A stretch of 64,000 nucleotides of DNA. Origin: Armatimonadota bacterium. Lineage in GTDB: Bacteria; Armatimonadota; UBA5829; DTLH01. Each line of letters starts with the position of its first letter. Within the stretch, counting starts at the first letter, position 1. The notes beneath the pieces were generated by a model. The model had not been told where the DNA came from. It saw only the letters and a program-made list of their open reading frames with translations, and searched no databases. Positions 8,407 through 24,479 of this stretch are shown here, piece after piece. The stretch lies in NCBI GenBank assembly GCA_039679675.1, contig JBDKUN010000030.1, positions 743 through 64,742 of the forward strand, in the 5' to 3' direction. The position numbers were made by a program, and so were the translations under genes.

Positions 8407-11400
8407 TCAGAACAACCTCTGCACGCAGGTCGGCTGCTCCAGATTGGACGAGTTCTTCATCTTTTGAGTGTACGGCCCCAAGTCTGAATTATCCGCAGTA
8501 GGATCATTTCTCCAGATATCAGGGGTATACCACTCGATATAGTTCGGTGAGGAGTCTCGGTGGTAATCCACCTCGAACACCTCGCCGTTGAATTTGCTTC
8601 TGAACAGGTCGCCGATCTGACCAGCGTAGCTGTTCACGATAAGTATCCGGTTATTGGGCAGCATCTGCGCCCTGTACGGCATGAACGGTACCGGAACTAC
8701 AACATTATCCAGAGTAGACTCTTCTCCATTGACCGTGTTTACCTTGGTAATCTTCCTGGACAACGCAGCGTATTCTTTGGCAGTCAAATCCCAGATGATT
8801 TTGCCATCCGAGCCTTCCACCACATAGACCGCCGACGAATCGCAGATAAGCAGCCTCGGAAGAGTGGAATCCAAGGCATCGAAATACGTCGGGCCCGAAA
8901 GCGCGACCTTTGACCCATTACTGGCAGTCAACGTCGTAAGCTGGCTTACGATGACTGAATTGTCATCATAAGTCCACTGGAAGTCACCGGCACCCTCGCG
9001 GTATTTCATGGCGACTATTGCGCCGCCTAACTGCCCACCGCCTGTGCTTTCGGTCTTGACCAGATCATTCGCGGTTCCCAGTCCATAGTTCGAGAGCGAA
9101 GCCCAGACCTGGTTGATGTATATATTCGACCCAGACGATTTATCAACCCCGGAAATCAGCTTCACACTGTTATACGTGAACCGTTTGTCTCTGTCCGTCG
9201 TTCGGGATATCCAATTCAGCTGATGAATCGGCCTGCCGTTGCTGTCTGTCTTTACCGGGCCAAGTATTTGCCTGCTCGCATTTGCGTAATACCTGTCCAC
9301 TATATCAAGAATCCTGAAATTGCCGCTGTCAGCTACCATACAGTGGTTCAGATAATACCAATTACCGTCAATTTTCTCGAACTCGCTCCACATAATGGCA
9401 TCGCTTGGAGACTCAAGCTTTTTCGGCTCTCCGGAGCGAAGGAGACTCCTAAACGAATCATCGAACACTGTGCATGACCATGCTATCTGGCCGCCCCTGT
9501 CGATCCTGAGTATCCGGTCGTTGCCTGAATCGACAACAAGATAATCAGAGCCGTTATACTTCTGAGCGACAAGCGGCTTGTTCAGCGGCTGCGAGGTAGC
9601 TCCATAAATAGTCCCGGTTCCGGAGCCGCTGAGCGGCGCGTATTCTGAAACGGAATCACAGGACCATGAAACCTTGCCGTCCGTCCCGACTTCGAGTAAG
9701 CGGTGGTTGTCTGTCAGCAGGCTCAACTCGTTCTTGAAAAGATAAATCCCGCAGGGTGAAGGCACAACCAGCATACCGTTCCCGCCGGCAAGCGACGATC
9801 TGAAGCTCCCGGTCATGGTGTTGATATCCGGGTCGATGCGCTGTTTCATCTCCGCGATCTTGCCGGCATCGACTATCTTTGTCTTGGAGTCCTCCGGCGT
9901 CGCGTCTACTGGCACGGCGAATATGTAGCCGTCATCACAGGTAAAGTAAACATAATCGCCAAGGACTATTGGCGAACTCGATACACCGGAGCACGGAACA
10001 CCGTCATGGTCAGGCACAGCCATGGACCAAAGCAGGTTGTCCCAGCTGGAGAAATCTACCTGGTCCAGCGGAATAAGCTGGTGGTCGACGAATACCCATA
10101 CAGGAAGCGATGTCGAGAGCATGTTCGTCTGTATCTGCACACCACCCACTGTCAGACCCTGCAGCCTGATTCGGCTGAAATTACTGACCGTAATCGTTCC
10201 CGAATCGTAGTCTATCATATCGCTCGGCACTCTCGTTGCTGCATTGGCGGGTGTCAGAGTCGATGCGCCATCAGCGAATAGGAAATCCGGCTGCCAGACC
10301 GATACATCATACTTCCTGTCCGGCACAGATGGGTCCTTGAGTGACCTGTTCAGCCTGATCGTGAACTCCTGTCCAGCCTTGAGGCAGAGCAGATATCCTC
10401 TGGACATTGCCGAATTACCGGGATCATGAGTAGTAGCGGTGACAAACACTCTGTCGTTCGTTACCGCGGGAGTGCACTTAGCCTCAAGATTGGCGACCGG
10501 ATATATTATCTCCTTTTGCGGATCGGTCGGGTCCGGCAAGCTTGCCTGAACGCCCCAAAATCTGTCCGGCACTCCTGTCATGGAGTTTCTGGTCGCGTCA
10601 AGAAGCGACATCATACCCCCGGCTGTACTACTATCTGCAGCTGGATTAATGAAACTCCCTGCACCGTGCAGAAAATAATTAAAGCCGAGCTTCGCGGAGC
10701 GCGATGTACCGTCAAACCACATCGAGTAGATGGACGAGCGGCCCGAACCTGGAGTGTCTCCCCAATCGACTCCCATATAGAAGGTATCATTGGAACTTAT
10801 CGCTGGAGTCGATGCGGCTTCGAGCTGCTGAGTCAAAACGTCTCCCATGTTAGGCGGCAGTTCATAGTTTGGCGGTATAAAGTTCGTGACTTTGCTATAG
10901 TCTATCGCATAGGACATGTACACCTTGACATTAGGGCCCAGGACGCCGCTTGTTGTTCTGATCGTCACCTGTCCCACTGTACTCGAGATATCAGGCGTAT
11001 CCAGAGGGATAGAATTGCCTGCTCCGTCGACTGCCCACGCCTCTGGCGCCGGATATGACGATATTGGGAGCATGCCATAAGATGTTCTGAACTTGGCAGA
11101 CGTTGGATTGTATCTCAACATAGCCGGGCTGATGGGACTCAACTTGTCACTCGACACAAAGACCGGCAGCGAATAGATATAGTCGTTAGGCGAAGGAGAC
11201 ATTACTTTGGGCGGCCTCCCTATGACCGAGAGCATCTGCACTACGGCGCCGTTGGTCTGGTTCTTCACAAACGCAAGCGTCGGACCGGACTTGACCTTAA
11301 CAGGATTAGCTGAGTTCATGTTAAGAGGAAGCGACCAGTCAGAAGATTGATTGAACATGCTTTTTGAAGCTGCTTCCTTTAGCATCGGACTGTAGGCATA

Positions 11401-12861
11401 GATCTTCCCGTCGCGTCCGGCAACATAAATCCATCCGTTCTGCACGACCGGCGGCAGCAGCGCTCCGTCGCCATCACCAATCGAGCCTGTCCAAAGATCA
11501 TCTCGTAGAGTGTCAGAAGCTAAATTGGATGAGAGAGCACTAAACACATATACATGCCCATCCCTGCAGGTGACGAGCACGAAATCTCTCGGCTCAAGCG
11601 GATCAGCAGATGGATCCAGCATAGTTACTACTGTCGGGCTGGAAATCTCATCCGGGCAATTATGGCTCCAGATCACATCGCAGTCAGCATTTGCCCCATC
11701 GGGCACACCGTCATCCGCGACACCGTTCATGTCGATGTCGTTACCGGGGTTGGCATCCATCGCGTAGAGTGTATTACCTGATGAATAGAATATGATGCCT
11801 TTCCAGATAACAGGGCTGTTCTCTATGTCTCCCCTGCTGATCGCCTGGCTGCAGCGCCATTGTTTCAGAAGCGGTGCACCGAGAGTCTCGACGGAATAGC
11901 CTGTACGGCGATACTCTTTTCTGAATGTTGTATAGGAAGTCGCATACCCGACGACGTTATAAGCAAACCTTACATTAGCCGGAGAAGCGGCCATTATATT
12001 AATGTTGGATGAATTGAGATCCAGATGATCGGGAATAGGACTCGCCCCGTTAATTATCGGATTCTGGATATTTCCGCCTATGAAACCGGAAGTAAAAACC
12101 ACCCGGCCGCTGCCGTACTCTATTGCAGCGATTGTAGGTGGATCGCTGCTGATCCCGCTGCCGCTGGTGGAGACCAGAATCGGCGAAAGCGTGGTAGGGC
12201 TGGGAATCGACGGCCCCCAGCTTGATTCATACCCCGGATTTATGGCTTTGGAAGTCGAGCTGAGCGAAGCAAGCTCAAGCGGATTCAATCTATAAGGCGT
12301 CGTGACCAGCGGGTGAAGTGACTGCAGAAGCATCGGTGTTCCGCCGCCGCCCGATACGAAGTTTATACCAGGAAGGAAAAACTCATCCGCGCCGCTTGGG
12401 AACTTCATATTCCCGCCGTTATCCACCCAGAGACACCCGCCGCCGTCAACATACCTGCGGAGTTTGTCTCTATCGTCCATGGGGAATCTCACAGCCTCGT
12501 CCGCGCTCATATAGAGCACATCGAACTTGGCAAGGTTCTCGTATGTCGTATTCCCCAGCGAGACTTCCCAATATCCTGCATAGTTCTTATAGGCAGCATT
12601 ACCGCCTGCCAGCGGATTGACAAATGTCCAGCCATGCGGTTTGAGGTCGTCTCTCAGCCCCATTATATAGAAGATGTACGGAGCCATCGGCGCGGCTACA
12701 GCGTCTTTATTTATGCCGCTGTCTTTTCTCGGAAGCAGCACCCCCGCGTTAATAACATGCTGTTTATCGACATACGTCTGCGCGCCTGCGAACGCAATCT
12801 GCGCGAGCAGTATGGTTAGGACCAGTATAGCTATTGCTATATATGAAAATCTGCGTATCAT
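8407..12861 (-). CDS. 1484-aa secreted protein; putative PilY1-like pilus-associated adhesin (N-terminal GATase1/ThuA-like region, C-terminal beta-propeller-like repeats)
   Basis: Signal peptide MIRRFSYIAIAILVLTILLAQIAFAGA. N-terminal DVLYMSADEAVRFPMDDRDKLRRYVDGGGCLWVDNGG (ThuA/DUF4159-like). Repeated ...DG.IYA / ..W.. segments suggest PQQ-like propeller blades; sits immediately downstream of the pseudopilin genes in the same operon. Confidence 0.5.
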   Translation of the reverse strand: MIRRFSYIAIAILVLTILLAQIAFAGAQTYVDKQHVINAGVLLPRKDSGINKDAVAAPMAPYIFYIMGLRDDLKPHGWTFVNPLAGGNAAYKNYAGYWEVSLGNTTYENLAKFDVLYMSADEAVRFPMDDRDKLRRYVDGGGCLWVDNGGNMKFPSGADEFFLPGINFVSGGGGTPMLLQSLHPLVTTPYRLNPLELASLSSTSKAINPGYESSWGPSIPSPTTLSPILVSTSGSGISSDPPTIAAIEYGSGRVVFTSGFIGGNIQNPIINGASPIPDHLDLNSSNINIMAASPANVRFAYNVVGYATSYTTFRKEYRRTGYSVETLGAPLLKQWRCSQAISRGDIENSPVIWKGIIFYSSGNTLYAMDANPGNDIDMNGVADDGVPDGANADCDVIWSHNCPDEISSPTVVTMLDPSADPLEPRDFVLVTCRDGHVYVFSALSSNLASDTLRDDLWTGSIGDGDGALLPPVVQNGWIYVAGRDGKIYAYSPMLKEAASKSMFNQSSDWSLPLNMNSANPVKVKSGPTLAFVKNQTNGAVVQMLSVIGRPPKVMSPSPNDYIYSLPVFVSSDKLSPISPAMLRYNPTSAKFRTSYGMLPISSYPAPEAWAVDGAGNSIPLDTPDISSTVGQVTIRTTSGVLGPNVKVYMSYAIDYSKVTNFIPPNYELPPNMGDVLTQQLEAASTPAISSNDTFYMGVDWGDTPGSGRSSIYSMWFDGTSRSAKLGFNYFLHGAGSFINPAADSSTAGGMMSLLDATRNSMTGVPDRFWGVQASLPDPTDPQKEIIYPVANLEAKCTPAVTNDRVFVTATTHDPGNSAMSRGYLLCLKAGQEFTIRLNRSLKDPSVPDRKYDVSVWQPDFLFADGASTLTPANAATRVPSDMIDYDSGTITVSNFSRIRLQGLTVGGVQIQTNMLSTSLPVWVFVDHQLIPLDQVDFSSWDNLLWSMAVPDHDGVPCSGVSSSPIVLGDYVYFTCDDGYIFAVPVDATPEDSKTKIVDAGKIAEMKQRIDPDINTMTGSFRSSLAGGNGMLVVPSPCGIYLFKNELSLLTDNHRLLEVGTDGKVSWSCDSVSEYAPLSGSGTGTIYGATSQPLNKPLVAQKYNGSDYLVVDSGNDRILRIDRGGQIAWSCTVFDDSFRSLLRSGEPKKLESPSDAIMWSEFEKIDGNWYYLNHCMVADSGNFRILDIVDRYYANASRQILGPVKTDSNGRPIHQLNWISRTTDRDKRFTYNSVKLISGVDKSSGSNIYINQVWASLSNYGLGTANDLVKTESTGGGQLGGAIVAMKYREGAGDFQWTYDDNSVIVSQLTTLTASNGSKVALSGPTYFDALDSTLPRLLICDSSAVYVVEGSDGKIIWDLTAKEYAALSRKITKVNTVNGEESTLDNVVVPVPFMPYRAQMLPNNRILIVNSYAGQIGDLFRSKFNGEVFEVDYHRDSSPNYIEWYTPDIWRNDPTADNSDLGPYTQKMKNSSNLEQPTCVQRLF

Positions 12862-12918: not shown

Positions 12919-15639
12919 TTATGTAGGCTCTCCGTAATAGTAAAGCGATCTGCAGACAGGCAGACGCGGCGTAATAGGAAGCGGACGGCCATAATCGTCC
13001 TTACGTACCGGAGTCATCACCCCGCCGTTCTCATATACAGGCCAGCCGACCATCGAATCGTAAAGGAGCGTAAGGCCGTCTCCCTTATGCGCCGTTGCAA
13101 CACTGGACGTGCCGTATTTGTCAGGTATATTACTCCATTTTGAGTACCACTCGCTGACATCTCCGACGGATGCGGGCAGGTTTTCGGTGATCGCTCCATC
13201 TATGGTAATCTTGGTATCGAGCGGCTGCCCGAAAAGCGGCCATTTTTGGTTTACACCCCTGGGCCGGTATCCGTCCTTGCCGGTATCAGCGGCGTTCATG
13301 TTGAACCAGTTGCCTGGAATGATGAAAAACGACCGGTTCTGGGCATACATGACCGCTTCGATGCGAATATCCAGCGGCTGTATGGTGAATGCCGACAATA
13401 AGTAATTATTTCTGGAGTAAGATGACTGATCGAGTCCGATCTCGAAATAGTTCGGCCTTCCGATAGCGTTGTATAACCCGGCCTGATCGAACCCGTTCGC
13501 ACTATCGAATATTTTGTGCTCGAACAAGCTCGAAAGCCCTGTGCCCTCTAGGCAATATCGCGGGTCGCCGCAGCCATAGACCCAATCCGGCGGCAGATAC
13601 TGGCTATTCTGCCCAATATGGAGGAGTCCCTGTGTGCCGCTTCCGCGATTCAGCCACATATTGATGTAAGACGGGCCGTATTGTCCGGCATGCCTTACGA
13701 AAAGCATCGTATCGTTACCCATCTGCCAGCTTCCGGTCGGCGGGCCGAACGAGAACGACGAGAAAAACGTGGTCGAAGGTTCCGGCGTCACTATCAGGTG
13801 ATACGGCGGCTGCCCCGTTCCCGAATCAGACCCGATTGAAGTCGGTCCGAGCGAAGACAGGAGCGATACGAACTGAGTAGTATTTACGCAGACATACTGC
13901 TTGGCAAGAAGCGATACTGCGGAAGTCGGATCGACATTACCATCTGTATCGCGATATTTCAGCAAATTGCCTTCCACATAGATGATCCCGCCGGAGACCA
14001 CAGTAAGCTGCTTGCCCTGGGCCAGCATACCTTTGATACGTATATTCCCTTCGGCATAGATAACGCCGTTTCGGTCGATGGTTATATCCTGCGCTGTCTT
14101 GTTTCCGCTGTCATCCACATTGTAATGAGTGAACGTCTGTGTCCCCTGCGGATACGGAATAGTTATGGTAGAACCCTTGTCGTTCATCGGAACCCCGAAA
14201 GAGTTGTACCAAACAGACTTCTTGCCGTAAAGGGCGTCACTCCTCTTGCTCTTGATGTCTGTCCTTGTGATAGTGATATCCGGCTGGTTGTCCCCGTCCG
14301 TATCGTATGGGTTCAAGGTGATGACAACGCCTGGCGGGACGTAATAGGGTCCCTGCCAGTAGGCGGACATATCGTTGTTCGGCTTCATCCAGTCCGCTCT
14401 GGGGGTGTAACCTCCGAAAAGTGTCTCACTTTCCTGCTGAATATCATCGCTGTTATCGATATAAATGCCGCGGCCCCAACCATATCGGCCGCTGTTCACC
14501 CACCTTTGGGTTCCCCAGCCCTGCTGGAGCCATATACCCGAGTCGCGCGTAAGCGCTATGTATCTGGAGACCTTGGTAGGCGTGTCTTCATCGTCCAAAA
14601 GCGGCGGTTCCAGCCGTTTGATGCCTCTGGCGTTTTTGCCGGCATCCGGGCTATCAGAACCATCGCGGTAAAAACCATATGCTGTAGTAAACGGCTGAGT
14701 ATAATCCGACGGCTGGACAGGATAACTGTTCACCGTGCCTCCGTTGATTACCTCATAAAGAGTTACAGGGACCGGCTGGCTGCTATTGTTGACATCAACA
14801 TTTTCATGTTTGATCGTTCCGGAGACTTCCACCATATCGAGCGGCATGTAATCGGTATTTGAGCCGTCCTGATAACTGGTTCCCCTGAGCACCAGGTCTA
14901 TTCTATTGCCGTACCATTCAAGGTTGCCGTTTACCCTGATCGGCGCCCCACGGACGCCCTCCCCTGCTGTTGTTTCGTTGCCGTATTTCACATTGAACCC
15001 GGCAGCGCCGAGCGGAATATCCTCTGATTTTTTCTCCAGATTTGTCACGAACCTGAGATAGTCCGTAACGCCGATCGGTTTATATGCAGTGAGTTCCCGG
15101 CGAAGACGGACATTGCTGTCCCAGGTGGTAGGGTCGTCATTTTCGACGGTACCGATCCGGCCTATGGACTCGATCTTTATATATTTGGACATCGGGTCTT
15201 TCGGATCCGGATTGTAGCTGACACGAAGCAGGTACCGGCCATCTCCCATTCTGAAGGTAGTATACCCGCCGGTCGGGCCGGTGCTGCCATCTGTAGCTTC
15301 GGCAGCAGAATAAGGCCTTAGCCATTGAAAATCGGGGTTAAGTGTGTTATCGACTCCTGCAGTACTGGTCTTCGGCATATTGTCCGGTACAGGACGCCAA
15401 TCAGCGCCGTCATCGCTCGTCATGAGCATGTTATCCGCGTAATGTATGCCTGCTTCCGACAGGTATTGTGCCGTAATGACGTCTCTCGACCGTCCGGCGC
15501 GGCCCTGGTTCCGGGCGACGAGCACGACAAACACTACACTGATGAACGCGAGCAAAAGCATCACTATGATTGCGATCACCAGTGATTGCCCACGCTCGTT
15601 TCCAAGCTGCACCTTGCTTTTATTCATCGATTTCATCAT
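12919..15639 (-). CDS. Giant (906 aa) GspK/PilX-like minor pseudopilin lacking Glu+5
   Basis: N-terminus KVQLGNERG/QSLVIAIIVMLLLAFISVVFVVLV has a class-III signal-peptide-like leader plus hydrophobic helix, but Ile instead of Glu at +5 (a GspK hallmark); last pilin gene in the operon, as gspK is. Confidence 0.55.
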   Translation of the reverse strand: MMKSMNKSKVQLGNERGQSLVIAIIVMLLLAFISVVFVVLVARNQGRAGRSRDVITAQYLSEAGIHYADNMLMTSDDGADWRPVPDNMPKTSTAGVDNTLNPDFQWLRPYSAAEATDGSTGPTGGYTTFRMGDGRYLLRVSYNPDPKDPMSKYIKIESIGRIGTVENDDPTTWDSNVRLRRELTAYKPIGVTDYLRFVTNLEKKSEDIPLGAAGFNVKYGNETTAGEGVRGAPIRVNGNLEWYGNRIDLVLRGTSYQDGSNTDYMPLDMVEVSGTIKHENVDVNNSSQPVPVTLYEVINGGTVNSYPVQPSDYTQPFTTAYGFYRDGSDSPDAGKNARGIKRLEPPLLDDEDTPTKVSRYIALTRDSGIWLQQGWGTQRWVNSGRYGWGRGIYIDNSDDIQQESETLFGGYTPRADWMKPNNDMSAYWQGPYYVPPGVVITLNPYDTDGDNQPDITITRTDIKSKRSDALYGKKSVWYNSFGVPMNDKGSTITIPYPQGTQTFTHYNVDDSGNKTAQDITIDRNGVIYAEGNIRIKGMLAQGKQLTVVSGGIIYVEGNLLKYRDTDGNVDPTSAVSLLAKQYVCVNTTQFVSLLSSLGPTSIGSDSGTGQPPYHLIVTPEPSTTFFSSFSFGPPTGSWQMGNDTMLFVRHAGQYGPSYINMWLNRGSGTQGLLHIGQNSQYLPPDWVYGCGDPRYCLEGTGLSSLFEHKIFDSANGFDQAGLYNAIGRPNYFEIGLDQSSYSRNNYLLSAFTIQPLDIRIEAVMYAQNRSFFIIPGNWFNMNAADTGKDGYRPRGVNQKWPLFGQPLDTKITIDGAITENLPASVGDVSEWYSKWSNIPDKYGTSSVATAHKGDGLTLLYDSMVGWPVYENGGVMTPVRKDDYGRPLPITPRLPVCRSLYYYGEPT

Positions 15640-15653: not shown

Positions 15654-17432
15654 TTATCTCAACAGGTTTCTCACACGGACCTTGTTCGTAAGCTCCATTG
15701 GATGAACTTTCTGGGTGTTCCGGTCGTAGTATCGAATGCCCATGGTTATCTGCATAAGAGTCTTAGTCGTATAATTGCCTATGACCACATCACCATCACG
15801 GTTACACTGGAATTTGTAGCTTATCTCGAACCTGGAAACTCCAGTGGACATTGTCTCCGGGATCACTTCGTCGTAGGCCGGGCTGAAAACAATCCAACCA
15901 ACCCTTTTGTCCGCGTTCGCGCTGTCGCTCATGCCGTAATCTATCTTGTACTGGTTCCTTCTCGGATCGCCGAGATTGAACGGCACGCGCTCATACCTGA
16001 CCATCCTGATTTCTTCCGGCTGCAGCCCCGGAGTCATATCCGGGCCCATAACCACTTCGCTTCCAGGGACTATCCTCGGCTTAAATTCGGAGTTCGACGG
16101 AACATTGCTGAACATCGTGAGCCGGTATATACGGGCCGGAGCGTTGCCGGGAGCGGTATTGGCCGCACGTTGGTTCATGGCAATAATATCGTCCTGGTGT
16201 ATCACATCCGAATCAGGAAAATCGAACCGCACCTCGCCTTTGACAGGATCGACATCAAACGCGACTTCGGGATTATTCGCTGGGAAAACTTTGTTCGTCT
16301 CGTAATCGGTGATGTCGAAAACAAAGGTCGGTTTACCTGCAGAATCATACCTATTGATTATCAGGTGTTTATTATCACCTTGGCGCGCGGTCCGGTACCA
16401 GATATCGTTGGCCTGCGTTGCCGGATTGTAGCGGTTCAGCGACACATTGTACATCTCAAGGTTGGAATCCCCTACCGAACTCGCCCACGCACCGTAACTG
16501 GCTCTAAAAACAGTCGGAATGCTCACCGGTGACTCTTTGCCCTCATCGGTGACATATGCCGGTTTGAAGGTGTCATCCGTTACCGGGGACGACTGGAACC
16601 GTACGCTCGGAACTACTGCCACGATCTTGTCTTTCGCATCGTTCATCCTCAAAAGCACGAGGTCGGTATCCGCCTGCGGGCCGACAGGCTTCGAGACAGC
16701 CTTCCAATTCTCCCAGAAAGGCTTACCATTTCCACCATTAGGAATATCCGTGCTGTAGAAGAAATCCGGGTCGTCGAGGATGGGTTTACCGTCAGTATCG
16801 AATTTGAAAAGGTTTTTATCGTATGGATCGACTTCAGCACGGTAGAGAATAAACCCGTTCAACGGAGAAGCGGAATCAGCCCAGTCCCGGTAGTTCGCTG
16901 CGGGATATGATGTAGAATTTGCATTGGGATCGTTATTGACCAGACCCACGAAATAACGCACGATCTTACCATCGGCAACGAGAGGCTCCTTCGGACGGGC
17001 TTCCACATCGGTAGACCCACACACTGGGCACGGCGGCCATGCGTCATCGCCTCGTTCATAATCACGAGGCTCGCTCTCGTCATGTTGAGGGTTGTTGCAG
17101 TGCATAACCAGCTTGGGCATTATAAGGTCGATCTTGCCGTACAGCGCCGTTATTTGTTCCCTGGTGCCGTTCGGCTGTTCGACCGGAAAGACAATCGGGC
17201 TGTTCGAGTTGTCATAGACAAACATCGCCTGGCTGACCTCCCGGCTCACCTGTTCCAGGGTCGTCCGGGCGGTATCCTGGGCCATAACCATCGCATTGGC
17301 CTGGCTGGTCATGTTGAATGTCTGGACGATAGGATAAAAGATCAGGCCCATCAGGATAATCGTGATAGTAATGACCACGAGAAGCTCAATTAACGTAAAA
17401 CCTGCTCTTGTCCTCTTATTGAACATAACCAC
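15654..17432 (-). CDS. Large (592 aa) prepilin-type N-terminal cleavage/methylation domain pseudopilin
   Basis: MVMFNKRTRAG/FTLIELLVVITITIIL is the canonical G|FTLIE prepilin motif with Glu+5, followed by a large periplasmic domain. Confidence 0.75.
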   Translation of the reverse strand: MVMFNKRTRAGFTLIELLVVITITIILMGLIFYPIVQTFNMTSQANAMVMAQDTARTTLEQVSREVSQAMFVYDNSNSPIVFPVEQPNGTREQITALYGKIDLIMPKLVMHCNNPQHDESEPRDYERGDDAWPPCPVCGSTDVEARPKEPLVADGKIVRYFVGLVNNDPNANSTSYPAANYRDWADSASPLNGFILYRAEVDPYDKNLFKFDTDGKPILDDPDFFYSTDIPNGGNGKPFWENWKAVSKPVGPQADTDLVLLRMNDAKDKIVAVVPSVRFQSSPVTDDTFKPAYVTDEGKESPVSIPTVFRASYGAWASSVGDSNLEMYNVSLNRYNPATQANDIWYRTARQGDNKHLIINRYDSAGKPTFVFDITDYETNKVFPANNPEVAFDVDPVKGEVRFDFPDSDVIHQDDIIAMNQRAANTAPGNAPARIYRLTMFSNVPSNSEFKPRIVPGSEVVMGPDMTPGLQPEEIRMVRYERVPFNLGDPRRNQYKIDYGMSDSANADKRVGWIVFSPAYDEVIPETMSTGVSRFEISYKFQCNRDGDVVIGNYTTKTLMQITMGIRYYDRNTQKVHPMELTNKVRVRNLLR

Positions 17433-17499: not shown

Positions 17500-19158
17500 T
17501 TAATCCGAAGATTTTTTCGCAATAATCGAATCCAGATCGACATGCCGCCACTTTTCAGTCTCGCGCCAGATGACTCTCGCTCTCACGGAAACGCCGTTGA
17601 CCGAGAGAATCCTTGTCGGCTCGTTGCTGAGATCGATATAAGTGCTATCGATGCCGCCATATCGGAGCAACGCGTCGGATGTCTTATGGCACTCGCCAAG
17701 GACCCTTCTGGTCTGCCCGTTCAGAGCGTATTCGTAATCGACCGAGATCGTATGACAGGCATTACAGGCCGCGAGCCACAACCGCTGTGGGTTATTTGAT
17801 TCATCAATGGCATAACTCTTATAATCCAGCTGGCCGGAGTTGTAGTCTCTATCGTACTGTACATAGGCTTTTTGGAACTGGAGCGACCAATCGCCTTCTG
17901 CTTTGTAGTAGAACCGGATATTCCGCCCCGCCGGAGAAATAGTAACATTTGAATTTCCACCGGTCCCGAAAAGCTCAATATTCTCGGGTAGATCTACTGT
18001 ACCGTTCTCATAATCGACCCACTCGGAGTCAAACGCAATCTGCCGGCCTGACTCAAGGTCCACAGCGATCATATCGGGGACAAATTTGGTTCCATTCGGC
18101 CCCGGAACGCTAAATCGCGGGTTCAGTCCTGCATACGGTTCACCGTTCAACTCCATGGACACGCCGCTCTCTTTTATGTGGTTGAGCGTCATATGCACAC
18201 GGTAAGGCGCATTCGTAGGAACGCGCTTGTCCTCATGGATAATCTCCAGATCGAGAATATCGTAATCGATCCGCGCCTTGAGCGGACGGCCGAACTCCTG
18301 TTGGCTGTAGCCGATTGGGTTGAACGATATAATACCGAGCAACGGATCCACCATCATGTATTCATACGGATCAGATGACCAGCTTGTAACCTCTGAAAAC
18401 CCACGTGCCACTGTGTCGCTGTATCTGTCGATACCCGCGTACGAAGCACCGGATGCCATACGATCCTGGATCGCCGGACCGAAATTGATCCACCCCTCTG
18501 TCCCGCCCGGAACTTCTATTTTTATGTTCGTGACCGTCCGCAGGTGAGGATTACTGCTTCCGTTCGGCGTTTCCCACCAGGAACAGCTGAGATAATAAAT
18601 ATGTGTCTGGCTCGATTCGCGGAAGCATACCGACAGGTTATCATAATCTATGGCATACTGGGAGGACCTAAGGAACTTCCATGGCTCCGTGTTGTCATCG
18701 GAATCCATCACCCGTCGTGATAGATTGCTTCCCTTTATGACAATTCCACCGTGAGTTGTATCTATCGGGCTGAAAGAGAGCACATAAGTCGAACCGCTCA
18801 ATGGCCCAGTGGACCATCCGCCGAAGGGTATGCGAACAGTCTCGCCTATGATCCGGCGAAAAGAGGTAGCATTGTCATCACCGACCGGCGGTCCCGGAAA
18901 ACAATCGTTAAGGACAACACCTGATGAATCTATCGGCAGAACGCCATCCGGCAGGTTCTCGGAATTGTTTTTCCACCGCTCCATCTCGAACTGAGCAAGC
19001 CGACCGGCCAGAGTCACATGTTCGGCATGGCGGACAGACCGGAACCCAGGCGGGTACAGCCTGACCACAGTCAGAATTCCCACCACGAGCACGATCAATA
19101 CAACCAGCACCTCGACTAACGAGGTGCCCCGATTATCTTTAGCTCTCAAGCACACCAT
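17500..19158 (-). CDS. Large (about 552-559 aa) prepilin-type pseudopilin
   Basis: ORF 17500..19179; leader MVCLRAKDNRG/TSLVEVLVVLIVLVVGIL has Gly-1 and Glu+5. Start is either 19179 or the internal ATG at 19158, which gives a short leader. Confidence 0.7.
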   Translation of the reverse strand: MVCLRAKDNRGTSLVEVLVVLIVLVVGILTVVRLYPPGFRSVRHAEHVTLAGRLAQFEMERWKNNSENLPDGVLPIDSSGVVLNDCFPGPPVGDDNATSFRRIIGETVRIPFGGWSTGPLSGSTYVLSFSPIDTTHGGIVIKGSNLSRRVMDSDDNTEPWKFLRSSQYAIDYDNLSVCFRESSQTHIYYLSCSWWETPNGSSNPHLRTVTNIKIEVPGGTEGWINFGPAIQDRMASGASYAGIDRYSDTVARGFSEVTSWSSDPYEYMMVDPLLGIISFNPIGYSQQEFGRPLKARIDYDILDLEIIHEDKRVPTNAPYRVHMTLNHIKESGVSMELNGEPYAGLNPRFSVPGPNGTKFVPDMIAVDLESGRQIAFDSEWVDYENGTVDLPENIELFGTGGNSNVTISPAGRNIRFYYKAEGDWSLQFQKAYVQYDRDYNSGQLDYKSYAIDESNNPQRLWLAACNACHTISVDYEYALNGQTRRVLGECHKTSDALLRYGGIDSTYIDLSNEPTRILSVNGVSVRARVIWRETEKWRHVDLDSIIAKKSSD

Positions 19159-19301
19159 AATCAGCTCCCAGTTGAGCATTATCTGTTTTTAATACTCTAC
19201 GAGTAACGATTCACCCTTACACGCCACTTCGAAACAAATACGTCACTCTGCACAACTAATACATCACCCTAAACGAAGGGCCATCGCCCTGAACGAGGAG
19301 A

Positions 19302-19431: not shown

Positions 19432-20190
19432 CTATTTATTAGGCCCAATCCTCCAGCGGGATCCGGGATCGGAGGTAGTATTCGAGCCTTCTATGTTAGA
19501 AATCGGAACCATATCGGAATGTCCGTCCAAAAACAACACCGGGACCATCGACTTGGCGTCGCCTTGGCGCTGATGGTAGCTGCACCAGGTCACGACAGTA
19601 TCATCTGACGGGTTGCGGAACCTGAGCTGCCTTTTGTAGTCATAAGCATCATCTGAAGTAGTCGATGCGGCTTTGTATTGGCCTACATTATTCGTGGTAT
19701 CAGCCCACTTGGTGGTATACCGGACATCGTACGGGTAATTTGCCGTAGCAGTATCGTTTACTACTCCCGGTGTGTATATATCATAACTGCTGTATGCATA
19801 GTACCAGTAATCCTTGCCGTCATCTTTGGTCACTTTAACTGTCGCAGTGGTTGATGACGTTACTGCTAGCGGGCAGTGGAAGCCTTTGATAGACTTGACA
19901 TACTCCGGGTACAGACCACCGCCGGTCCTGGCACGCTCCAGCGGAACAGGTGTATTACCCTGAAACTCGACGTAACCAGCGAGTGAGTCCGGATACCGCC
20001 TGTTGTCCTGCTGGAACATCTTGATCGCTATAGCCAGGTTATGCAGGTTAGTCATACACTGAACCCGTCTAGCATTGTTCTTCACGGACCCCATTACCGG
20101 GAAAATAATCGCCGAAAGTATCGCAATGATCGCGATTACTGTGAGGAGTTCCACCAGGCTGAATCCCTGCTTACCGCGCATCGTTTTCAT
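19432..20190 (-). CDS. Prepilin-type pilin with C-terminal H-X9-DG-type (DUF1559-like) domain
   Basis: MKTMRGKQG/FSLVELLTVIAIIAIL prepilin leader with Glu+5; C-terminal TWCSYHQ...VLFLDGHSD motif; TNLHNLAIAIKMFQQD region typical of PVC-type DUF1559 pilins. Confidence 0.8.
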   Translation of the reverse strand: MKTMRGKQGFSLVELLTVIAIIAILSAIIFPVMGSVKNNARRVQCMTNLHNLAIAIKMFQQDNRRYPDSLAGYVEFQGNTPVPLERARTGGGLYPEYVKSIKGFHCPLAVTSSTTATVKVTKDDGKDYWYYAYSSYDIYTPGVVNDTATANYPYDVRYTTKWADTTNNVGQYKAASTTSDDAYDYKRQLRFRNPSDDTVVTWCSYHQRQGDAKSMVPVLFLDGHSDMVPISNIEGSNTTSDPGSRWRIGPNK

Positions 20191-20302: not shown

Positions 20303-20935
20303 TCATTTCGGACGCGTATTCCACCTGCTTCCGACTGATCCATTATTGCCTTCGACGGCTGCAGCTGAGCATATGTCTGAATGACCATCATAAAACAACA
20401 CCGGCAGGCCGCCCTCTCTGTGATAGCTGCACCAAGTGATTACAGTGTTATCTTCAGCTTTTTTTGCACCGGGAAGCGATGGGTTGTAACGCAGCGCATC
20501 TGTGCCGAGCTTCACAACACCATCCGATTCTTTCGGCGTATATACATCGTAGCTGTCGTAAGCGTAGTATCTGCGGACTTTACCGCCTACCAGTATCTCC
20601 GCCACAGTATCTGTTCGTTCTACAGGTGATAACCGGCAGTGGAACCCTTTCATTACCTTAATGTACTCAGGATAGAGTCCTCTGCTCTTTCTAAAATGAA
20701 CAGCCTTCCCTGCGTCCATCTCTACATAACCCGCGAGACTTTCAGGAAACCCTTTATAGTCCTGTTCATACATCTTAAATCCAATAGCTATGTTGTGCAG
20801 GTTCGTCATACATGTGACTTTTGGACTAATAGGATCAACATACGCAAACATAGGAACCAGCACTGCGATAACAACTACAACCGCGAGTATTGCAACTATG
20901 GCCCCAAAAACGCTCCAGCCTCTACTGTTACGCAT
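20303..20935 (-). CDS. H-X9-DG-type pilin paralog with degenerate prepilin leader
   Basis: Paralog of 19432..20190 (shared CMTNLHNIAIGFKMYEQD, SLAGYVE, TWCSYHREGGLPVLFYDGHSD), but N-terminus MRNSRGWSVFGAIVAILAVVVV lacks Glu+5 and the F/T/L/I/E pattern. Confidence 0.7.
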   Translation of the reverse strand: MRNSRGWSVFGAIVAILAVVVVIAVLVPMFAYVDPISPKVTCMTNLHNIAIGFKMYEQDYKGFPESLAGYVEMDAGKAVHFRKSRGLYPEYIKVMKGFHCRLSPVERTDTVAEILVGGKVRRYYAYDSYDVYTPKESDGVVKLGTDALRYNPSLPGAKKAEDNTVITWCSYHREGGLPVLFYDGHSDICSAAAVEGNNGSVGSRWNTRPK

Positions 20936-20979: not shown

Positions 20980-21849
20980 CTAGAACCCGTGATGAAGAAA
21001 CTGCATATACCAATTGATTAACTGATTTCCAAAGAACATCGTGATCAGCACGCCACTGACCATCATCGGGCCGAACGGCAGCGTATTGCTGTTTTCCTGC
21101 CCTTTATGGGCGATCATCCACCCGATCCCTATAATACTGCCTGCAAAAACGGCGATGAAAAACGACAATAACGCCAATCCCAGCCCCAAACCGCTCGTAA
21201 CAGCCCCGCAAAAGACTGCACCGATCGCACCGGCAAGTTTGACATCACCGCCGCCCATCGCCTCCTTTTTGAAAGCTCTTGTGCCAAGCTCCGCTATAGC
21301 TAAAAATATGCCGCCGCATATAAACAATCCGGCGACAGACCACAACATCGGAATCTCAATACCGGTAAACGGTACTGGAATATGGAGGAGGGTATGCCCC
21401 TCCTCATGCATCACTAATCCGTAAATGTCCCGAACTACCCCTATGCTCATTCCGAACCACACCGAAAGCTGGTCTGGAATGACCCAGTGCTCCAGGTCGA
21501 TAAAAAACACCGCTATCAGCGCAGCCGTAAAAAGCGCGTAGAGAAAGAAATTGACCGCAAAACCATATTCGGCGAAAAGCGCCACGGATATAAGCCCTGT
21601 AATCAACTCTACAGTAAAATACCGCCAGCTTATCGGCTCGCCGCAGTAGCGGCATTTACATCTAAGCATCAAAAAGCTCAAAAGCGGAATATTATCTATC
21701 CATCTAAGCTTTTTGTTGCATTTTGGGCAGTGCGACGGCGGATAGATGATCGACTGCTCTATCGGCATCCGGTAGATACAGACGTTCAAAAAGCTGCCGA
21801 TTACAGCGCCATAAATAAATACAACAAGCGCCCAAAACCAAAACTGCAC
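20980..21849 (-). CDS. pilD: Prepilin peptidase (A24 family, PilD/GspO-like)
   Basis: 289 aa polytopic protein with N-terminal CPKCNKKL...CKCRYCGEPIS tetracysteine zinc-finger typical of PilD and multiple TM helices. Confidence 0.85.
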   Translation of the reverse strand: MQFWFWALVVFIYGAVIGSFLNVCIYRMPIEQSIIYPPSHCPKCNKKLRWIDNIPLLSFLMLRCKCRYCGEPISWRYFTVELITGLISVALFAEYGFAVNFFLYALFTAALIAVFFIDLEHWVIPDQLSVWFGMSIGVVRDIYGLVMHEEGHTLLHIPVPFTGIEIPMLWSVAGLFICGGIFLAIAELGTRAFKKEAMGGGDVKLAGAIGAVFCGAVTSGLGLGLALLSFFIAVFAGSIIGIGWMIAHKGQENSNTLPFGPMMVSGVLITMFFGNQLINWYMQFLHHGF

Positions 21850-21854
21850 TAAGA

Positions 21855-23078
21855 CTACTCCGATGCGCCAGAAAGATTCTGAATTACCGCAATAAGCGGC
21901 AGGAAGATCGATATAACAATAAACCCTACCGCTCCTCCGAGGAATACGATCATAACAGGCTCAATAGTCGCCGTAAGACTGTCAAGCGCGGCATCAACCT
22001 CAGCCTCATAGAACTCAGCGACTTTATGAAGCATCGGATCGAGTGCACCGGACTCCTCACCGATGGAGATCATCTGGACAACCATCGGAGGGAACAGTTT
22101 ACTTCTCTGCAACGGGTCTCCGATCCGGTCACCTTCCCGAATCCTTGCCCTTGCTTCAAGTATGGCATCGCTTACAATCTCATTCGAGACCGTTCCTGCA
22201 ACCGTTTCAAGTGCCTGCAGGATCGGGACTCCTGAAGCAAGCAGTGTCCCAAGCGTTCTCGAGAACCTGGCAAGAACGATTTTGTGATTCAGTTTTCCAA
22301 AGACCGGAGCCTTCAGTTTAAACCTGTCATAAACACGCCTGCCGGCCTTCGACTTGATAAACAGCTTGAAAGCGATGACAAACACCACCAGGCATACGAT
22401 CATGATATACCACTTGCTGGTCAGAAAGTGGCTGAATCCCATCAGCAATCTTGTAGGCGCAGGAAACTCTTTGACACCGAGGTCATCGAACAGGGACATA
22501 AACTTAGGCAGGATGAACGTAACCAGGCCGATTACGATACCGACAGCCACGATCATAACAATGATCGGATAAGTCATCGCTGACTTGACCTTTCGCCGTA
22601 GTTCCATGTCGCCTTCAAGGAACTGCGAAAGCCTCTGTAAGCTTTCCTCAAGAACACCGCCGACTTCGCCTGCCTTGATCAGACCGATAAACAGGTTCGA
22701 GAACACGTTCGGGTACTTGCTCAGCGCTCTTGAGAGTGTCTGGCCTGCCTCTACTTCCATCTGCATGTCGTTGATGATCCTTTTGAGCTTCGGGCTTACC
22801 GTCTGCTCCGCAAGGACGGACAGGCACCTGACCATCGACACACCGGCGTCAATCATAGTGGAAAACTGACGGCAAAAGACCGAAAGGTCGCTCAGCTTTA
22901 TCCTTCCGAACCCTCCGCCAGCATTCTTCTTCTTAGCGCCTTTGGTTTCTTTGATGTCGACAACCGTAAATCCCTGCTCGGTCAGCCTCCGCCTCAGCAA
23001 TCCTTCACTTTCGGCCTCGACTGTTCCGGGGATCTGGTTTCCGCTTGCATCACGTACTGTGTATGCAAAATTTGGCAT
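21855..23078 (-). CDS. pilC: Type IV pilus / T2SS inner-membrane platform protein (PilC/GspF family)
   Basis: 407 aa with duplicated GspF-like cytoplasmic domains and 3 TM segments; N-terminus MPNFAYTVRDASGNQIPGTVEAESEGLLRRRLTEQGFTVVDI is a typical PilC opening. Confidence 0.85.
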   Translation of the reverse strand: MPNFAYTVRDASGNQIPGTVEAESEGLLRRRLTEQGFTVVDIKETKGAKKKNAGGGFGRIKLSDLSVFCRQFSTMIDAGVSMVRCLSVLAEQTVSPKLKRIINDMQMEVEAGQTLSRALSKYPNVFSNLFIGLIKAGEVGGVLEESLQRLSQFLEGDMELRRKVKSAMTYPIIVMIVAVGIVIGLVTFILPKFMSLFDDLGVKEFPAPTRLLMGFSHFLTSKWYIMIVCLVVFVIAFKLFIKSKAGRRVYDRFKLKAPVFGKLNHKIVLARFSRTLGTLLASGVPILQALETVAGTVSNEIVSDAILEARARIREGDRIGDPLQRSKLFPPMVVQMISIGEESGALDPMLHKVAEFYEAEVDAALDSLTATIEPVMIVFLGGAVGFIVISIFLPLIAVIQNLSGASE

Positions 23079-23201
23079 ATGCCTTCACTCCTATCCTGAT
23101 TCGTATTCCTAATCCGTAGTTCGAAGGTATTTATAAAGTATGAACTAAGGCCGGCCTTACAGTCTGCAAGAACACACGGACTGGACTACGAAACTTTTGT
23201 A

Positions 23202-24398
23202 CTATCTCCTGTTCATGCCGTTCGGTACGTCCGTCGACATCGGCGCAGCGATCATTTTCTTGAGTTCTTCAGGGTTCATAGCACGCGTCATAGCATCATC
23301 ATAAGTAATGGCGCCTCTATGATAGAGTTCCCTCAAGTGCTGGTCCATCGTCTGCATACCAACATTGGCGCTCGTCTGGATAATAGACGTAATCTGGTGG
23401 CTCTTCGCCTCTCGGATAAGGTTCCTGATAGCCGGAGTAGCTATCATAATCTCCATCGCGCAGACTCGTCCGGGCATACCGGCCCTCGGCATGAGCTGCT
23501 GGCAGAGGACGGCTTCCAAACTGTTCGAAAGCATCAATCGTATCTGGTCCTGCTGGTTTGCAGGGAATGAATCTACGATCCTGTCGACTGTCGATGCGGC
23601 ACTGTTCGTGTGCAGCGTGGCGAAAACAAGGTGTCCTGTTTCTGCAGCGCGGATTGCGTTCGACATCGTCTCAAGGTCTCTCATCTCACCGACCAGTATC
23701 ACGTCAGGATCTTCTCGAAGGGCAGCCCTTAGGGCATTTGCGAACTCATGTGTATCCTGGCCGACTTCGCGCTGGTTGATAATACAATATTTATGCTGAT
23801 GCAGATATTCAACCGGGTCCTCGATTGTGATGATATGGCAGCTTCGCTCATTATTCATCTGGTTGATCATAGCCGCAAGCGATGTAGACTTGCCGCTTCC
23901 CGTCGGCCCGGTAACAATGATCATACCTCTTGGCCTTCGGGTAAGTTCCTCCAGAATCGGAGGAAGCCCCAGGTCTTGTATGGTCGGAATCTTCGTCGGG
24001 ATCAACCTGAAAGCCCCTGCGACAGCACCTTTATCACGATACACATTGACACGGAACCGTGCTACCTTACCAAGAGCATATGAAAGGTCAAGCTCAAGAT
24101 TCTCTTCAAACCGCTGTATCTGCTCATCCGAGAGAATATCGTACATAATTCTCTGGCATTGGATGGTCTCGACCCTTGTATAGTTAAGCGGTAAAAGCTG
24201 ACCGTCGACGCGGATAATCGGCGGTACACCCACACAGAGATGCAGGTCCGATGCGCCTTTCTCTACTACAATTCTGAGAAGATCATCGACGTGTGTATCG
24301 CCTATCTCAATCGGCTTGTTCGCGTTTTGAGTCTGAGTTATCTGCGCAGCCTGCTCCGGCGGAATCTGCTGTGCATGGTTTGTTATCTGCTGTTCCAA
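23202..24398 (-). CDS. pilT: PilT-type retraction ATPase (twitching motility protein family)
   Basis: Walker A GPTGSGKSTSLAAMI; PilT/PilU-size core with an N-terminal extension of about 35 aa; ...DPIE...RE... motifs. Confidence 0.8.
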   Translation of the reverse strand: MEQQITNHAQQIPPEQAAQITQTQNANKPIEIGDTHVDDLLRIVVEKGASDLHLCVGVPPIIRVDGQLLPLNYTRVETIQCQRIMYDILSDEQIQRFEENLELDLSYALGKVARFRVNVYRDKGAVAGAFRLIPTKIPTIQDLGLPPILEELTRRPRGMIIVTGPTGSGKSTSLAAMINQMNNERSCHIITIEDPVEYLHQHKYCIINQREVGQDTHEFANALRAALREDPDVILVGEMRDLETMSNAIRAAETGHLVFATLHTNSAASTVDRIVDSFPANQQDQIRLMLSNSLEAVLCQQLMPRAGMPGRVCAMEIMIATPAIRNLIREAKSHQITSIIQTSANVGMQTMDQHLRELYHRGAITYDDAMTRAMNPEELKKMIAAPMSTDVPNGMNRR

Positions 24399-24479
24399 TC
24401 CCTATTGCCTCCGACTAAAGAAAGTTCAGAGTTCAAAGTGCAGTGTGCACAGTTCATGCACCCGCACCAAATACCTCTA

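Follow-up and report, generated by a model that had tools for sequence, protein, structure and literature searches.

A large secreted protein encoded behind the minor pilin genes of Armatimonadota as a possible non-homologous analogue of PilY1

The window analyzed here, a 64,000-nucleotide stretch of Armatimonadota DNA, encodes a secreted protein of 1484 residues, which we labelled T1484. We propose, at a probability of roughly 55%, that in the type IVa pilus of Armatimonadota T1484 joins the minor pilins in a priming and tip complex as its non-pilin member, and that it is an analogue of PilY1 without being homologous to it. The gene occupies the PilY1 slot but has no detectable PilY1 relationship, and T1484 is therefore probably the phylum's own tip or priming protein. 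If this is true, the role of PilY1 in Armatimonadota is filled by a protein made of different parts. T1484 is composed of a signal peptide, a GATase1-like domain, and two successive propellers, with the following features:

8407..12861, minus strand: T1484 gene, complete including the stop codon (ORF list and translation)
12787..12861, minus strand: type I signal peptide, aa 1-25, with predicted cleavage at AFA/GAQ (sequence and alignment)
11932..12765, minus strand: class-I-GATase-like (DUF4159/ThuA-like) domain, aa ~33-310 (Pfam, model, and Foldseek)
9727..11868, minus strand: propeller 1, aa ~332-1045, PQQ/BamB-like, probably 8 blades (model and Foldseek)
11698..11739, minus strand: acidic loop D375-x-D377-x-[DN]379-G380-x-x-D383-D384-G385-x-x-D388, a candidate Ca2+ site (column counts)
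8410..9726, minus strand: propeller 2, aa ~1046-1484, NHL-like, with repeated D-S-G-N-x-R-I-L motifs (model)
8416..8442, minus strand: C-terminal tail L-x-Q-P-[TS]-x-A-x-R, aa 1474-1482 (alignment)

The ORF list and translation gave an uninterrupted reading frame of 1484 aa with an ATG start and a Shine-Dalgarno-like motif, AAGAAGGTG, ~10 nt upstream, and an NCBI entry, 'MAG: DUF4159 domain-containing protein [Armatimonadota bacterium]', is identical to the protein. The signal peptide was read directly from the sequence as MIRR, a hydrophobic core, and AFA/G; the N-terminus, MIRRFSYIAIAILVLTILLAQIAFA followed by GAQ, has the make-up of type I, with n- and h-regions and an AXA c-region, and this signal peptide is kept across homologues in the alignment and was modelled by AlphaFold2 as one helix (aa 2-31). 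Neither a prepilin motif nor a lipobox was found at the N-terminus in the sequence, the alignment, or the model, and T1484 is predicted to be a secreted, soluble, non-pilin protein with a Sec-type signal peptide. Both the signal peptide and the 57-bp gap to the 906-aa pseudopilin gene reported in the first-pass annotation were borne out, the distance to the stop of that gene (12919..15639) being exactly 57 bp.

The genes accompanying T1484 are those of a pilus cluster:

12919..15639, minus strand: X906, 906-aa giant minor pilin, PilX/GspK-like (N-terminal pattern and synteny)
15654..17432, minus strand: W592, 592-aa giant minor pilin with a canonical G/FTLIELLVV prepilin N-terminus (N_methyl match)
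17500..19179, minus strand: V559, 559-aa giant minor pilin with a PilV-like N-terminus, G/TSLVEVL (TIGR02523)
19432..20190, minus strand: DUF1559-type prepilin, 252 aa, with a GspG-like N-terminus (N_methyl and SBP_bac_10/DUF1559 matches)
20303..20935, minus strand: extra DUF1559 paralogue, 210 aa, without the GFxxxE motif (ORF list and Pfam)
20980-21849, minus strand: prepilin peptidase (47% identical to an L001 gene carrying Peptidase_A24)
21855-23078, minus strand: PilC (NCBIfam, 5e-132)
23202-24398, minus strand: PilT (NCBIfam PilT family, 512 bits against a cut-off of 319)
24480-26246, minus strand: PilB (NCBIfam, 2.2e-190)

On this one strand the order is pilB, pilT, pilC, peptidase, pilin, V, W, X, with the T1484 gene last, and the peptidase-PilC-PilT-PilB block spans 20980..26246 (minus strand). 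The 252-aa DUF1559-type prepilin is likely the major pilin. W592 matches HpsC and Verru_Chthon cassette protein C at its N-terminus only, V559 matches the TIGR02523 PilV model at 1.6e-7, which is under the model's cut-off, and X906, with neither a Pfam nor an NCBIfam match, carries an N-terminal pattern, RGQ[ST]L[IV][IV]A, that was found in 75 loci. The mature N-terminus of X906, QSLVIA, is without Glu5, a residue present in both V559 and W592 (+,+,-). That the upstream genes are pilin-like, as first annotated, is upheld by the N_methyl and PilV matches, the N-terminal patterns, and the presence of PilB, PilT, and PilC in the cluster. Promoter- or terminator-like sites in the region showed no excess over shuffled sequence. 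In the closest relative, L007, one pilin gene stands in place of the 252-/210-aa pair.

Members of the T1484 family (E<=1e-30) were found in 86 species genomes and 234 clusters at 50% identity and, except for two oddly labelled MAGs, are limited to Armatimonadota. The architecture is uniform, at 1300-1840 aa, across at least 234 clusters, and there is about one copy per genome, with 80 distinct loci each coming from a different species genome. Within a synteny sample of 82 Armatimonadota loci, with identities down to ~23%, X906 lay directly upstream of T1484 in 73/73 loci, and W592 (61/61), V559 (57/59), and the pilin (56/56) were also found upstream. T1484 is strictly operon-linked to pilus genes across the phylum, and its location behind pilV-, pilW-, and pilX-like genes, noted earlier as the pilY1 slot, is conserved phylum-wide. 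PilX and GspK also lack Glu5, sit atop the minor-pilin complex, and touch PilY1, and the slot behind a pilX-type gene is that of tip proteins (PMC7541494). The invariant linkage of X906 and T1484 and the Glu5 pattern, both drawn from sequence, support the reading of T1484 as a PilY1 analogue. Counting against this reading, most other lineages encode another secreted protein, of 2100-3300 aa, downstream of the T1484 homologue, and this could be the real adhesin or a cargo.

The closest known systems are PilY1/PilC (P. aeruginosa PA4554, PDB 3HX6; M. xanthus PilY1.1-1.3; Neisseria PilC1/2). Like these, T1484 is large and soluble and carries a signal peptide of type I, is encoded directly after pilV/pilW/pilX-type genes in a T4aP cluster with PilB, PilT, and PilC, stands next to a PilX-like pilin without Glu5, and has a propeller whose blades are PQQ-like, together with an acidic calcium-type loop, a candidate by motif only. 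This general design (signal peptide, size, PQQ-like propeller, and acidic loop) supports the analogue reading. In contrast, T1484 has two propellers, of which the first seems to have 8 blades and two inserted beta-domains, whereas PilY1 has one modified 7-bladed propeller; the N-terminus of PilY1 is variable and often vWA, whereas that of T1484 is conserved and GATase1-like (DUF4159); and T1484 bears a conserved C-terminal QPxxAxR tail.

Neither the window protein (E<=0.1) nor any of its three regions searched separately (E<=10) matched PF05567, and the same held for 16 close and 6 distant homologues. The T1484 family profile did not find the PilY1 structure 3HX6 in the PDB at E<=1, a control profile from Acidithiobacillus PilY1 proteins found it at 1.6e-6, and 3HX6 was absent from the best 50 Foldseek matches of the 1160-residue propeller model. 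The T1484 profile (37 sequences) and the PilY1 profile (12 sequences) were aligned by hhalign along one 31-column blade motif, at a probability of 0.8%. T1484 shows no detectable PilY1 homology, and the PF05567, 3HX6, and hhalign results argue against membership in the PilY1 family; in that sense the 'PilY1-like' of the first-pass annotation is not supported. A true but extremely diverged PilY1 orthologue, with a propeller beyond the reach of sequence methods, would share the operon slot, signal peptide, PQQ-like blade motifs, and acidic loop, and in the PDB both profiles do hit one and the same set of designed 'Cake' propellers of the PQQ type. Moreover, the Pfam model misses real PilY1 proteins, because Acidithiobacillus PilY1 matches no Pfam PilY1 model either. 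We nevertheless consider such an orthologue very improbable given the hhalign, profile, and Foldseek results, the two propellers with inserted domains, and an N-terminus that is GATase1-like rather than vWA.

For the N-terminal domain, Pfam DUF4159 (PF13709) matched aa 107-154 (E=2.1e-7, 31.1 bits against a gathering score of 25.9), a partial match to model positions 46-94 of 202; the isolated domain scored 35.2 bits against the cut-off of 25.9, and the same match was present in 16/16 full-length homologues. An AlphaFold2 model of aa 1-335 (pLDDT 82.8) gave 47 PDB matches at E<=1e-3 in Foldseek, with modest TM scores of 0.3-0.48, among them GH42 domain B, ThuA-like 4jqs, STM3548 2gk3, the IFT52 N-terminal domain, and a GNB/LNB phosphorylase; the PDB entries matched include 5xb7, 2zuw, 5fmr, and 3soz. 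The modelling and these likenesses to DUF4159/ThuA/GIFT proteins point to a flavodoxin-like GATase1 fold, and not vWA; the segment initially described as ThuA/DUF4159 GATase-like lies inside the Pfam match, in agreement with the model and Foldseek. T1484 shares the VDGGG-L-W-D, HP-L, and YG-G motifs of the DUF4159 family, but ordinary DUF4159 proteins are stand-alone and ~200 aa, whereas in T1484 the domain forms the N-terminal part of a 1484-aa protein from a pilus operon.

No conserved GATase nucleophile (the Cys of the Cys-His-Glu triad) was found across 62 family sequences, the sole candidate, Cys143 in GGGC, being T/V/Q/L in most of them, which speaks against a catalytic class I glutamine amidotransferase. 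A GATase1-like fold without a conserved Cys suits a role in binding or docking better than an enzymatic one. The N-terminal domain was also the most conserved structured region: its median identity to the window protein was 0.32, compared with 0.16-0.26 in the remaining structured regions (linker, 0.33). A conserved internal partner would explain this at least as well as an exposed adhesin.

The remaining 1160 residues were modelled as all-beta (pLDDT 85.3, pTM 0.73) and matched multi-propeller proteins and BamB in Foldseek. Blade-like repeats forming a propeller had been anticipated, and propellers are present in the model, but as two rather than one of seven blades. BamB chains aligned to propeller 1 over ~735 query columns, with TM scores of 0.57-0.64 normalised to BamB, and a profile search placed PQQ-like blade motifs at aa ~350-370, 460-490, 685-715, and 951-985. 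With blade and insert boundaries inferred from the secondary-structure string, propeller 1 is apparently 8-bladed and probably carries inserted beta-domains at aa ~574-679 and ~839-941. Its DxDxDGxxDDG loop (aa 375-385) is a candidate calcium site by virtue of the DxDxDG motif, with the following residue counts among 62 sequences: D375 49, D377 44, G380 49, D383 58, D384 55, G385 60, and D388 51. Propeller 2 has a weak Pfam PQQ_2 match (aa 1217-1386), and NHL repeats are weakly matched in the homologue P0021. Of the Pfam PQQ-family models, PQQ_2 (26.6 against 27.6) and Beta-prop_ACSF4 both stayed below cut-off in the window protein, and some homologues exceed the PQQ_2 cut-off. The C-terminal tail, modelled as a terminal beta-strand, is strongly kept at P1477 (62/62), R1482 (58/62), A1480 (52/62), and L1474 (50/62).

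The structural matches bear on a second explanation, in which T1484 stays in the cell as a periplasmic or outer-membrane-associated assembly scaffold, either as a BamB-like platform guiding the large minor pilins or in place of an alignment or secretin-associated component. Among single-domain matches, BamB chains from BAM complexes come out best, one homologue bears the NCBI name 'BamB family protein', the whole of T1484 including its N-terminus is evenly conserved, as for fixed internal partners, and the window contains no secretin or PilMNO (PilMNOQ) genes, an absence that also counts against the tip reading. This explanation seems to us rather doubtful, however, as no lipoprotein Cys follows the signal peptide, the PQQ_2 match is under the Pfam cut-off, the propeller likeness is generic (DDB1 and Sro7 outrank BamB by Foldseek E-value), and machine components are as a rule not encoded behind a pilX-type gene, the slot of tip proteins (PMC7541494). 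Among PQQ-like 8-bladed propellers, BamB resembles T1484 in fold only, propeller 1 being the part that aligns: BamB is a lipoprotein of ~390 aa with a single 8-bladed propeller, whereas T1484 is a four times larger non-lipoprotein with three domains in a pilus operon. T1484 as BamB itself was rejected, with TIGR03300 (the BamB equivalog) far under cut-off at 16.9 bits against 285, no lipobox, and a length of 1484 aa with three domains.

Alternatively, T1484 might be the cargo of a T2SS-like piston, exported as a surface or extracellular binding protein or enzyme, as might the downstream 2100-3300-aa protein in most lineages. It is consistent with this that T1484 is large, soluble, and multi-domain and has a Sec signal peptide; secreted carbohydrate-related proteins often contain GATase1-like domains (GH42, ThuA, GIFT) and NHL/PQQ-like propellers, another giant secreted protein does lie behind T1484 in most lineages, and PilY1 itself may be viewed as an analogue of a T2SS substrate (PMC7541494). 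We judge the cargo explanation unlikely, since the bona fide PilT retraction ATPase argues for a retractile pilus and an enzymatic cargo would be at odds with the lack of a conserved catalytic nucleophile. T2SS cargo genes are usually variable and scattered, whereas the PilX-like linkage is invariant phylum-wide, the architecture is uniform, and there is one locus per species genome.

If T1484 is the PilY1 analogue that we favour, it would be exported by Sec with cleavage of the signal peptide after Ala25, and in the periplasm it would dock onto a V559/W592/X906 trimer held in the inner membrane via N-terminal helices. X906 is proposed to cap the minor-pilin stack, as PilX and GspK do, because it is without Glu5. 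With PilB and PilC driving polymerisation of the DUF1559-type major pilin, the complex would act as its primer and emerge at the filament tip. There the GATase1-like domain, taken to be non-catalytic, could form an adhesive or sensing head together with both propellers, and the DxDxDG loop may render the function of this head calcium-dependent; PilT would retract the fibre. We thereby infer contact of T1484 with the minor pilins, a tip location, and ligand and calcium binding.

Similar lineage-specific sets of pilin-like proteins with a large partner are the Verru_Chthon cassette (TIGR02596, TIGR02598, TIGR02599, TIGR02600) and cyanobacterial HpsB-D, but the matches of W592 to cassette protein C and HpsC cover only the prepilin helix (aa 6-77), and the Verru_Chthon cassette models matched neither T1484 nor X906 at E<=0.1. 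In Thermus thermophilus, ComZ, an example of a non-PilY1 tip protein, is a large non-pilin from a minor-pilin cluster that is thought to be located at the pilus tip and to give the pilus a specific function. ComZ shares its size and this gene setting with T1484, but it is a beta-solenoid DNA-binding protein unrelated to T1484 in sequence and fold.

T1484, the 1484-residue secreted protein, is encoded by the last gene of a co-directional pilus cluster, which runs as follows in the order of transcription:

24480-26246 (-), PilB (TIGR02538, 2e-190)
23202-24398 (-), PilT (512 bits, cut-off 319)
21855-23078 (-), PilC
20980-21849 (-), prepilin peptidase
20303-20935 (-) and 19432-20190 (-), two DUF1559-type pilins
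17500-19179 (-), V559, a very large pilin-like protein with a PilV-like N-terminus, G/TSLVE
15654-17432 (-), W592, very large and pilin-like, N-terminus G/FTLIE
12919-15639 (-), X906, very large and pilin-like, N-terminus G/QSLVI, without Glu5
8407-12861 (-), T1484, an unbroken ORF of 1484 codons with an ATG start

A Shine-Dalgarno-like AAGAAGGTG lies 5' of the T1484 ATG, and the distance from the stop of the 906-aa gene is 57 bp, the value given in the first-pass annotation. A charged, a hydrophobic and an AXA region, as in type I signal peptides, are seen in the N-terminus, MIRRFSYIAIAILVLTILLAQIAFA/GAQTY, which is conserved in homologues, bearing out the claim that the protein is secreted; inspection of this sequence found neither a prepilin motif nor a lipobox cysteine. 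Promoter and terminator scans gave the same counts as shuffled sequence. The identical protein in NCBI is named 'MAG: DUF4159 domain-containing protein [Armatimonadota bacterium]', and public annotation of the family is confined to 'DUF4159 domain-containing' or 'BamB family'.

Glu5 is present in V559 and W592 and then absent from X906, the same pattern as in PilV-PilW-PilX and GspI-J-K. In the Myxococcus model, the minor-pilin stack is topped by a PilX without Glu5, which touches PilY1 (PMC7541494). Beyond the N-terminal helix, no Pfam or NCBIfam model matched any of the three proteins, and membership of a Verru_Chthon cassette or Hps set was ruled out, the match being limited to the prepilin helices. 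Typical minor pilins have roughly 150-300 residues; those encoded here (12919-19179 (-)) are unusually large at 559, 592 and 906 residues, and reach ~1100 residues in other lineages. Neither secretin nor PilMNO genes were found within the 64-kb window. The 210-aa DUF1559 pilin at 20303-20935 (-) is an extra paralogue whose N-terminus, MRNSRGWSVFGAIVAIL, has neither the GFxxxE motif nor Glu5; in an 81% identical relative, L007, a single pilin gene separates the peptidase from V559.

A phmmer search with T1484 residues 1-1200 against 1.84 billion cluster representatives returned 580 proteins at E <= 1e-3 and 234 at E <= 1e-30, of 1300-1840 aa when fragments are set aside; a second, word-indexed search with a 37-sequence profile added no family members. 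Relatives occur in 86 genomes when each GTDB species is represented by one genome, and the taxon-labelled carriers are Armatimonadota (Chthonomonadales, Fimbriimonadales, Capsulimonadaceae and Armatimonadales) with two exceptions, MAGs labelled Janthinobacterium lividum and Sedimentisphaerales. The former contig (L064) has an Armatimonadota-type module with pilin, W592, X906 and T1484, the latter (L072), which is shorter, has W592, X906 and T1484, and both contigs were probably mis-binned into these public MAGs. Upstream of the T1484 homologue, X906 ends at a distance of less than 1.5 kb in all 73 loci with enough upstream DNA, and W592 (61/61), V559 (57/59) and a pilin (56/56) are likewise found upstream, so the pilY1-type position after the minor pilins, as first proposed, holds across the family. 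Gene order stays fixed down to ~23% protein identity, and gene calls and Pfam labels on three independent contigs are consistent with it. That T1484 works together with the minor pilins is strongly supported by this invariant linkage over the phylum.

Pfam DUF4159 matches T1484 at residues 107-154 (E = 2.1e-7, 31.1 bits, gathering score 25.9) and likewise all 16 full-length homologues, and the segment that the first-pass annotation had singled out lies inside this match; with the ORF, the gap and the signal peptide, this confirms the original observation. An AlphaFold2 model of residues 1-335 (36 sequences) had a mean pLDDT of 82.8 and gave 47 Foldseek matches to the PDB at E <= 1e-3. The top 50 matches listed were mostly class-I-glutamine-amidotransferase-like domains without known catalysis, among them domain B of GH42 enzymes (5xb7), galacto-N-biose/lacto-N-biose phosphorylase (2zuw), the ThuA-like protein 4jqs, STM3548 (2gk3), STM1381 (3soz) and the IFT52 N-terminal domain (5fmr). 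Because TM scores were modest (0.3-0.48), assignment of the fold leans on the Pfam match as well; together they uphold the proposed ThuA/GATase1-like N-terminal module. Motifs kept among 62 sequences are KP-GW-F-NP, YW, VDGGG-LW-D, HPL and YG-G. Cys143 of VDGGGC is the sole candidate nucleophile, and most of the 62 members have Thr, Val, Gln or Leu at that position. This rules out a glutamine amidotransferase or ThuA-type enzyme, and since no nucleophile is conserved we read the domain as a binding or docking module. Clear homology to a glycoside hydrolase, which would have spoken for an unrelated enzyme, was not found: the matched part of the GH42 and phosphorylase structures is just the GATase1-like domain, which is non-catalytic, and there was no match to a catalytic domain.

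The remainder of the protein (residues 325-1484, modelled from 37 sequences; pLDDT 85.3, pTM 0.73) is nearly all beta, and its top Foldseek matches in the PDB were the multi-propeller proteins DDB1 and Sro7. Combining the Foldseek matches with the secondary-structure string and the PQQ-type blade motifs found by profile search against PDB sequences (residues ~350-370, 460-490, 685-715 and 951-985), we read two propellers in this model. The first (residues ~332-1045) is PQQ/BamB-like and probably 8-bladed, with two predicted inserted beta-domains (~574-679 and ~839-941), boundaries and blade numbers being inferred; the second (~1046-1484) we read as NHL-like from repeated DSGNxRIL motifs, with support from a weak NHL match in one homologue (P0021). 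A propeller had thus been rightly predicted, as one seven-bladed unit in place of the two read here. BamB aligned with the model over ~735 query columns (TM 0.57-0.64 normalised to BamB), and a cell-bound, BamB-like assembly scaffold is an improbable alternative role; a BamB orthologue is ruled out by the missing lipobox cysteine. Two short motifs are strikingly conserved. The acidic loop D375-x-D-x-[DN]-G-x-x-D-D-G-x-x-D (62 sequences) is shaped like DxDxDG calcium-binding loops and may bind calcium, and the tail L-x-Q-P-[TS]-x-A-x-R near the C-terminus, with Pro1477 in 62/62, could be a closing propeller strand or a docking strand for a pilin. The tail (residues 1474-1482; window 8416-8442 (-)) ends 0-4 residues from the C-terminus family-wide.

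In type IV pili a complex that minor pilins form with PilY1 is needed for the start of assembly and for tip function, and most knowledge of PilY1 comes from Proteobacteria and Myxococcus. T1484 was first described as PilY1-like, and resembles PilY1 in having a signal peptide and a propeller and in its operon slot. The Pfam PilY1 model PF05567 matched neither the window protein, nor three isolated regions of it even at E <= 10, nor 16 close and 6 distant homologues; the family profile did not match the sequence of the solved PilY1 structure 3HX6 at E <= 1, and 3HX6 was not within the best 50 Foldseek matches of the propeller model. As a positive control, a published primer for the Acidithiobacillus pilY1 gene retrieved two loci from metagenomes, whose products are PilY1 in the literature:

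L085, 3117-6611 (+), Acidithiobacillus-type PilY1, 1164 aa
L086, 3509-6955 (-), Acidithiobacillus-type PilY1, 1148 aa

Neither protein matched a Pfam family at E<=1e-3, the PilY1 model included, and the Pfam model therefore misses part of the accepted family. As a single sequence the L085 protein matched no PDB chain; only the family profile (A5, built from homologues named 'type IV pilin biogenesis protein' or 'PilY1' by NCBI/JGI) reached 3HX6, at 1.6e-6. Aligned by hhalign with the 37-sequence T1484 profile, A5 gave a probability of 0.8% over one 31-column blade motif, and since both profiles match the same designed PQQ-type 'Cake' propellers, the common element in sequence is a generic PQQ-like blade. 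Unlike PilY1, T1484 has two propellers, its head is GATase1-like rather than vWA, and conservation within it peaks in the N-terminal domain, the part that varies in PilY1. We conclude that T1484 is analogous to PilY1 in position and architecture and not a demonstrable member of its family; that it is a true PilY1, diverged past recognition, is very unlikely.

We favour, with a probability of roughly 55%, a role for T1484 as partner of the V559-W592-X906 complex that primes pilus assembly and ends at the tip of a fibre retracted by PilT. After Sec export and cleavage of its signal peptide, T1484 would bind the inner-membrane-anchored complex, most likely via X906, which has no Glu5. The assembled complex would prime PilB/PilC-driven assembly of the DUF1559 pilin and reach the fibre tip, where the propellers and the GATase1-like domain, perhaps with calcium in the acidic loop, would bind substrate or surface, and PilT would retract the fibre. 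Slightly more doubtful than the scaffold is a secretion-type use of the machine with T1484 as its cargo. These two alternatives, and the diverged PilY1, stay alive because T1484 is evenly conserved as a whole and a secreted protein of 2100-3300 aa is encoded downstream in most other lineages.

More tentatively, and at somewhat less than even odds, Armatimonadota may have replaced the PilY1-type tip protein with this unrelated 160-kDa protein of a GATase1-like domain and two propellers. The head of a retractile type IV pilus would then be specific to the phylum and unusually massive, made up of this protein, the three giant minor pilins (560-1100 aa each) and, in most lineages, the large downstream protein; the family would be a new one of tip or priming proteins, with the conserved GATase1/GIFT-like domain as a docking or glycan-binding element. 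Large non-pilin partners in the tip or priming complex of type IV pili are known already; the novelty lies in T1484 as such a partner, in the giant minor pilins and in their being fixed across the phylum. A full-text literature search found no mention of the family and no function for DUF4159, which here gains its first concrete cellular context. If true, this would be a second, unrelated answer to PilY1's job, fixed over an entire poorly studied phylum, and the conserved feature would be the tip slot, not the PilY1 protein. Many Armatimonadota are surface-living and polysaccharide-degrading, and T1484 is a testable candidate for their attachment or movement.

The secreted giant ORF lies directly 3' of the T1484 homologue in most Armatimonadota lineages, for example at

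L011, 14366-21244
L032, 14696-21115
L051, 14238-22538
L028, 15103-23430

and also in L003, L004 and ~40 other loci. These proteins bear Golvesin_C and a PQQ-like propeller and are alike mainly over their C-terminal 500-900 aa; we found no relevant literature on golvesin, and no homologue within the window by tblastn. In the clade of the window a HemN-like gene follows T1484 in place of the giant, and the ancestral module may thus have had five genes. The genes beyond T1484 are:

7214-8389 (-), HemN-like radical SAM gene, starting 17 bp past the T1484 stop and co-oriented
6431-7198 (-), TauE-type exporter gene, after the HemN-like gene and co-oriented with T1484
3026-6424 (+), convergent ORF of 1132 aa

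The close relatives L005, L007 and L010 have the HemN gene after T1484, and L005 and L007 the TauE gene as well; both are absent from this place in distant lineages, so their adjacency looks lineage-specific, not functional. The 1132-aa ORF contains repeats like purple-acid-phosphatase-N/fn3 and modules like CBM_4_9; its product probably is secreted and binds carbohydrate, and has no relationship to the giants found downstream in other lineages.
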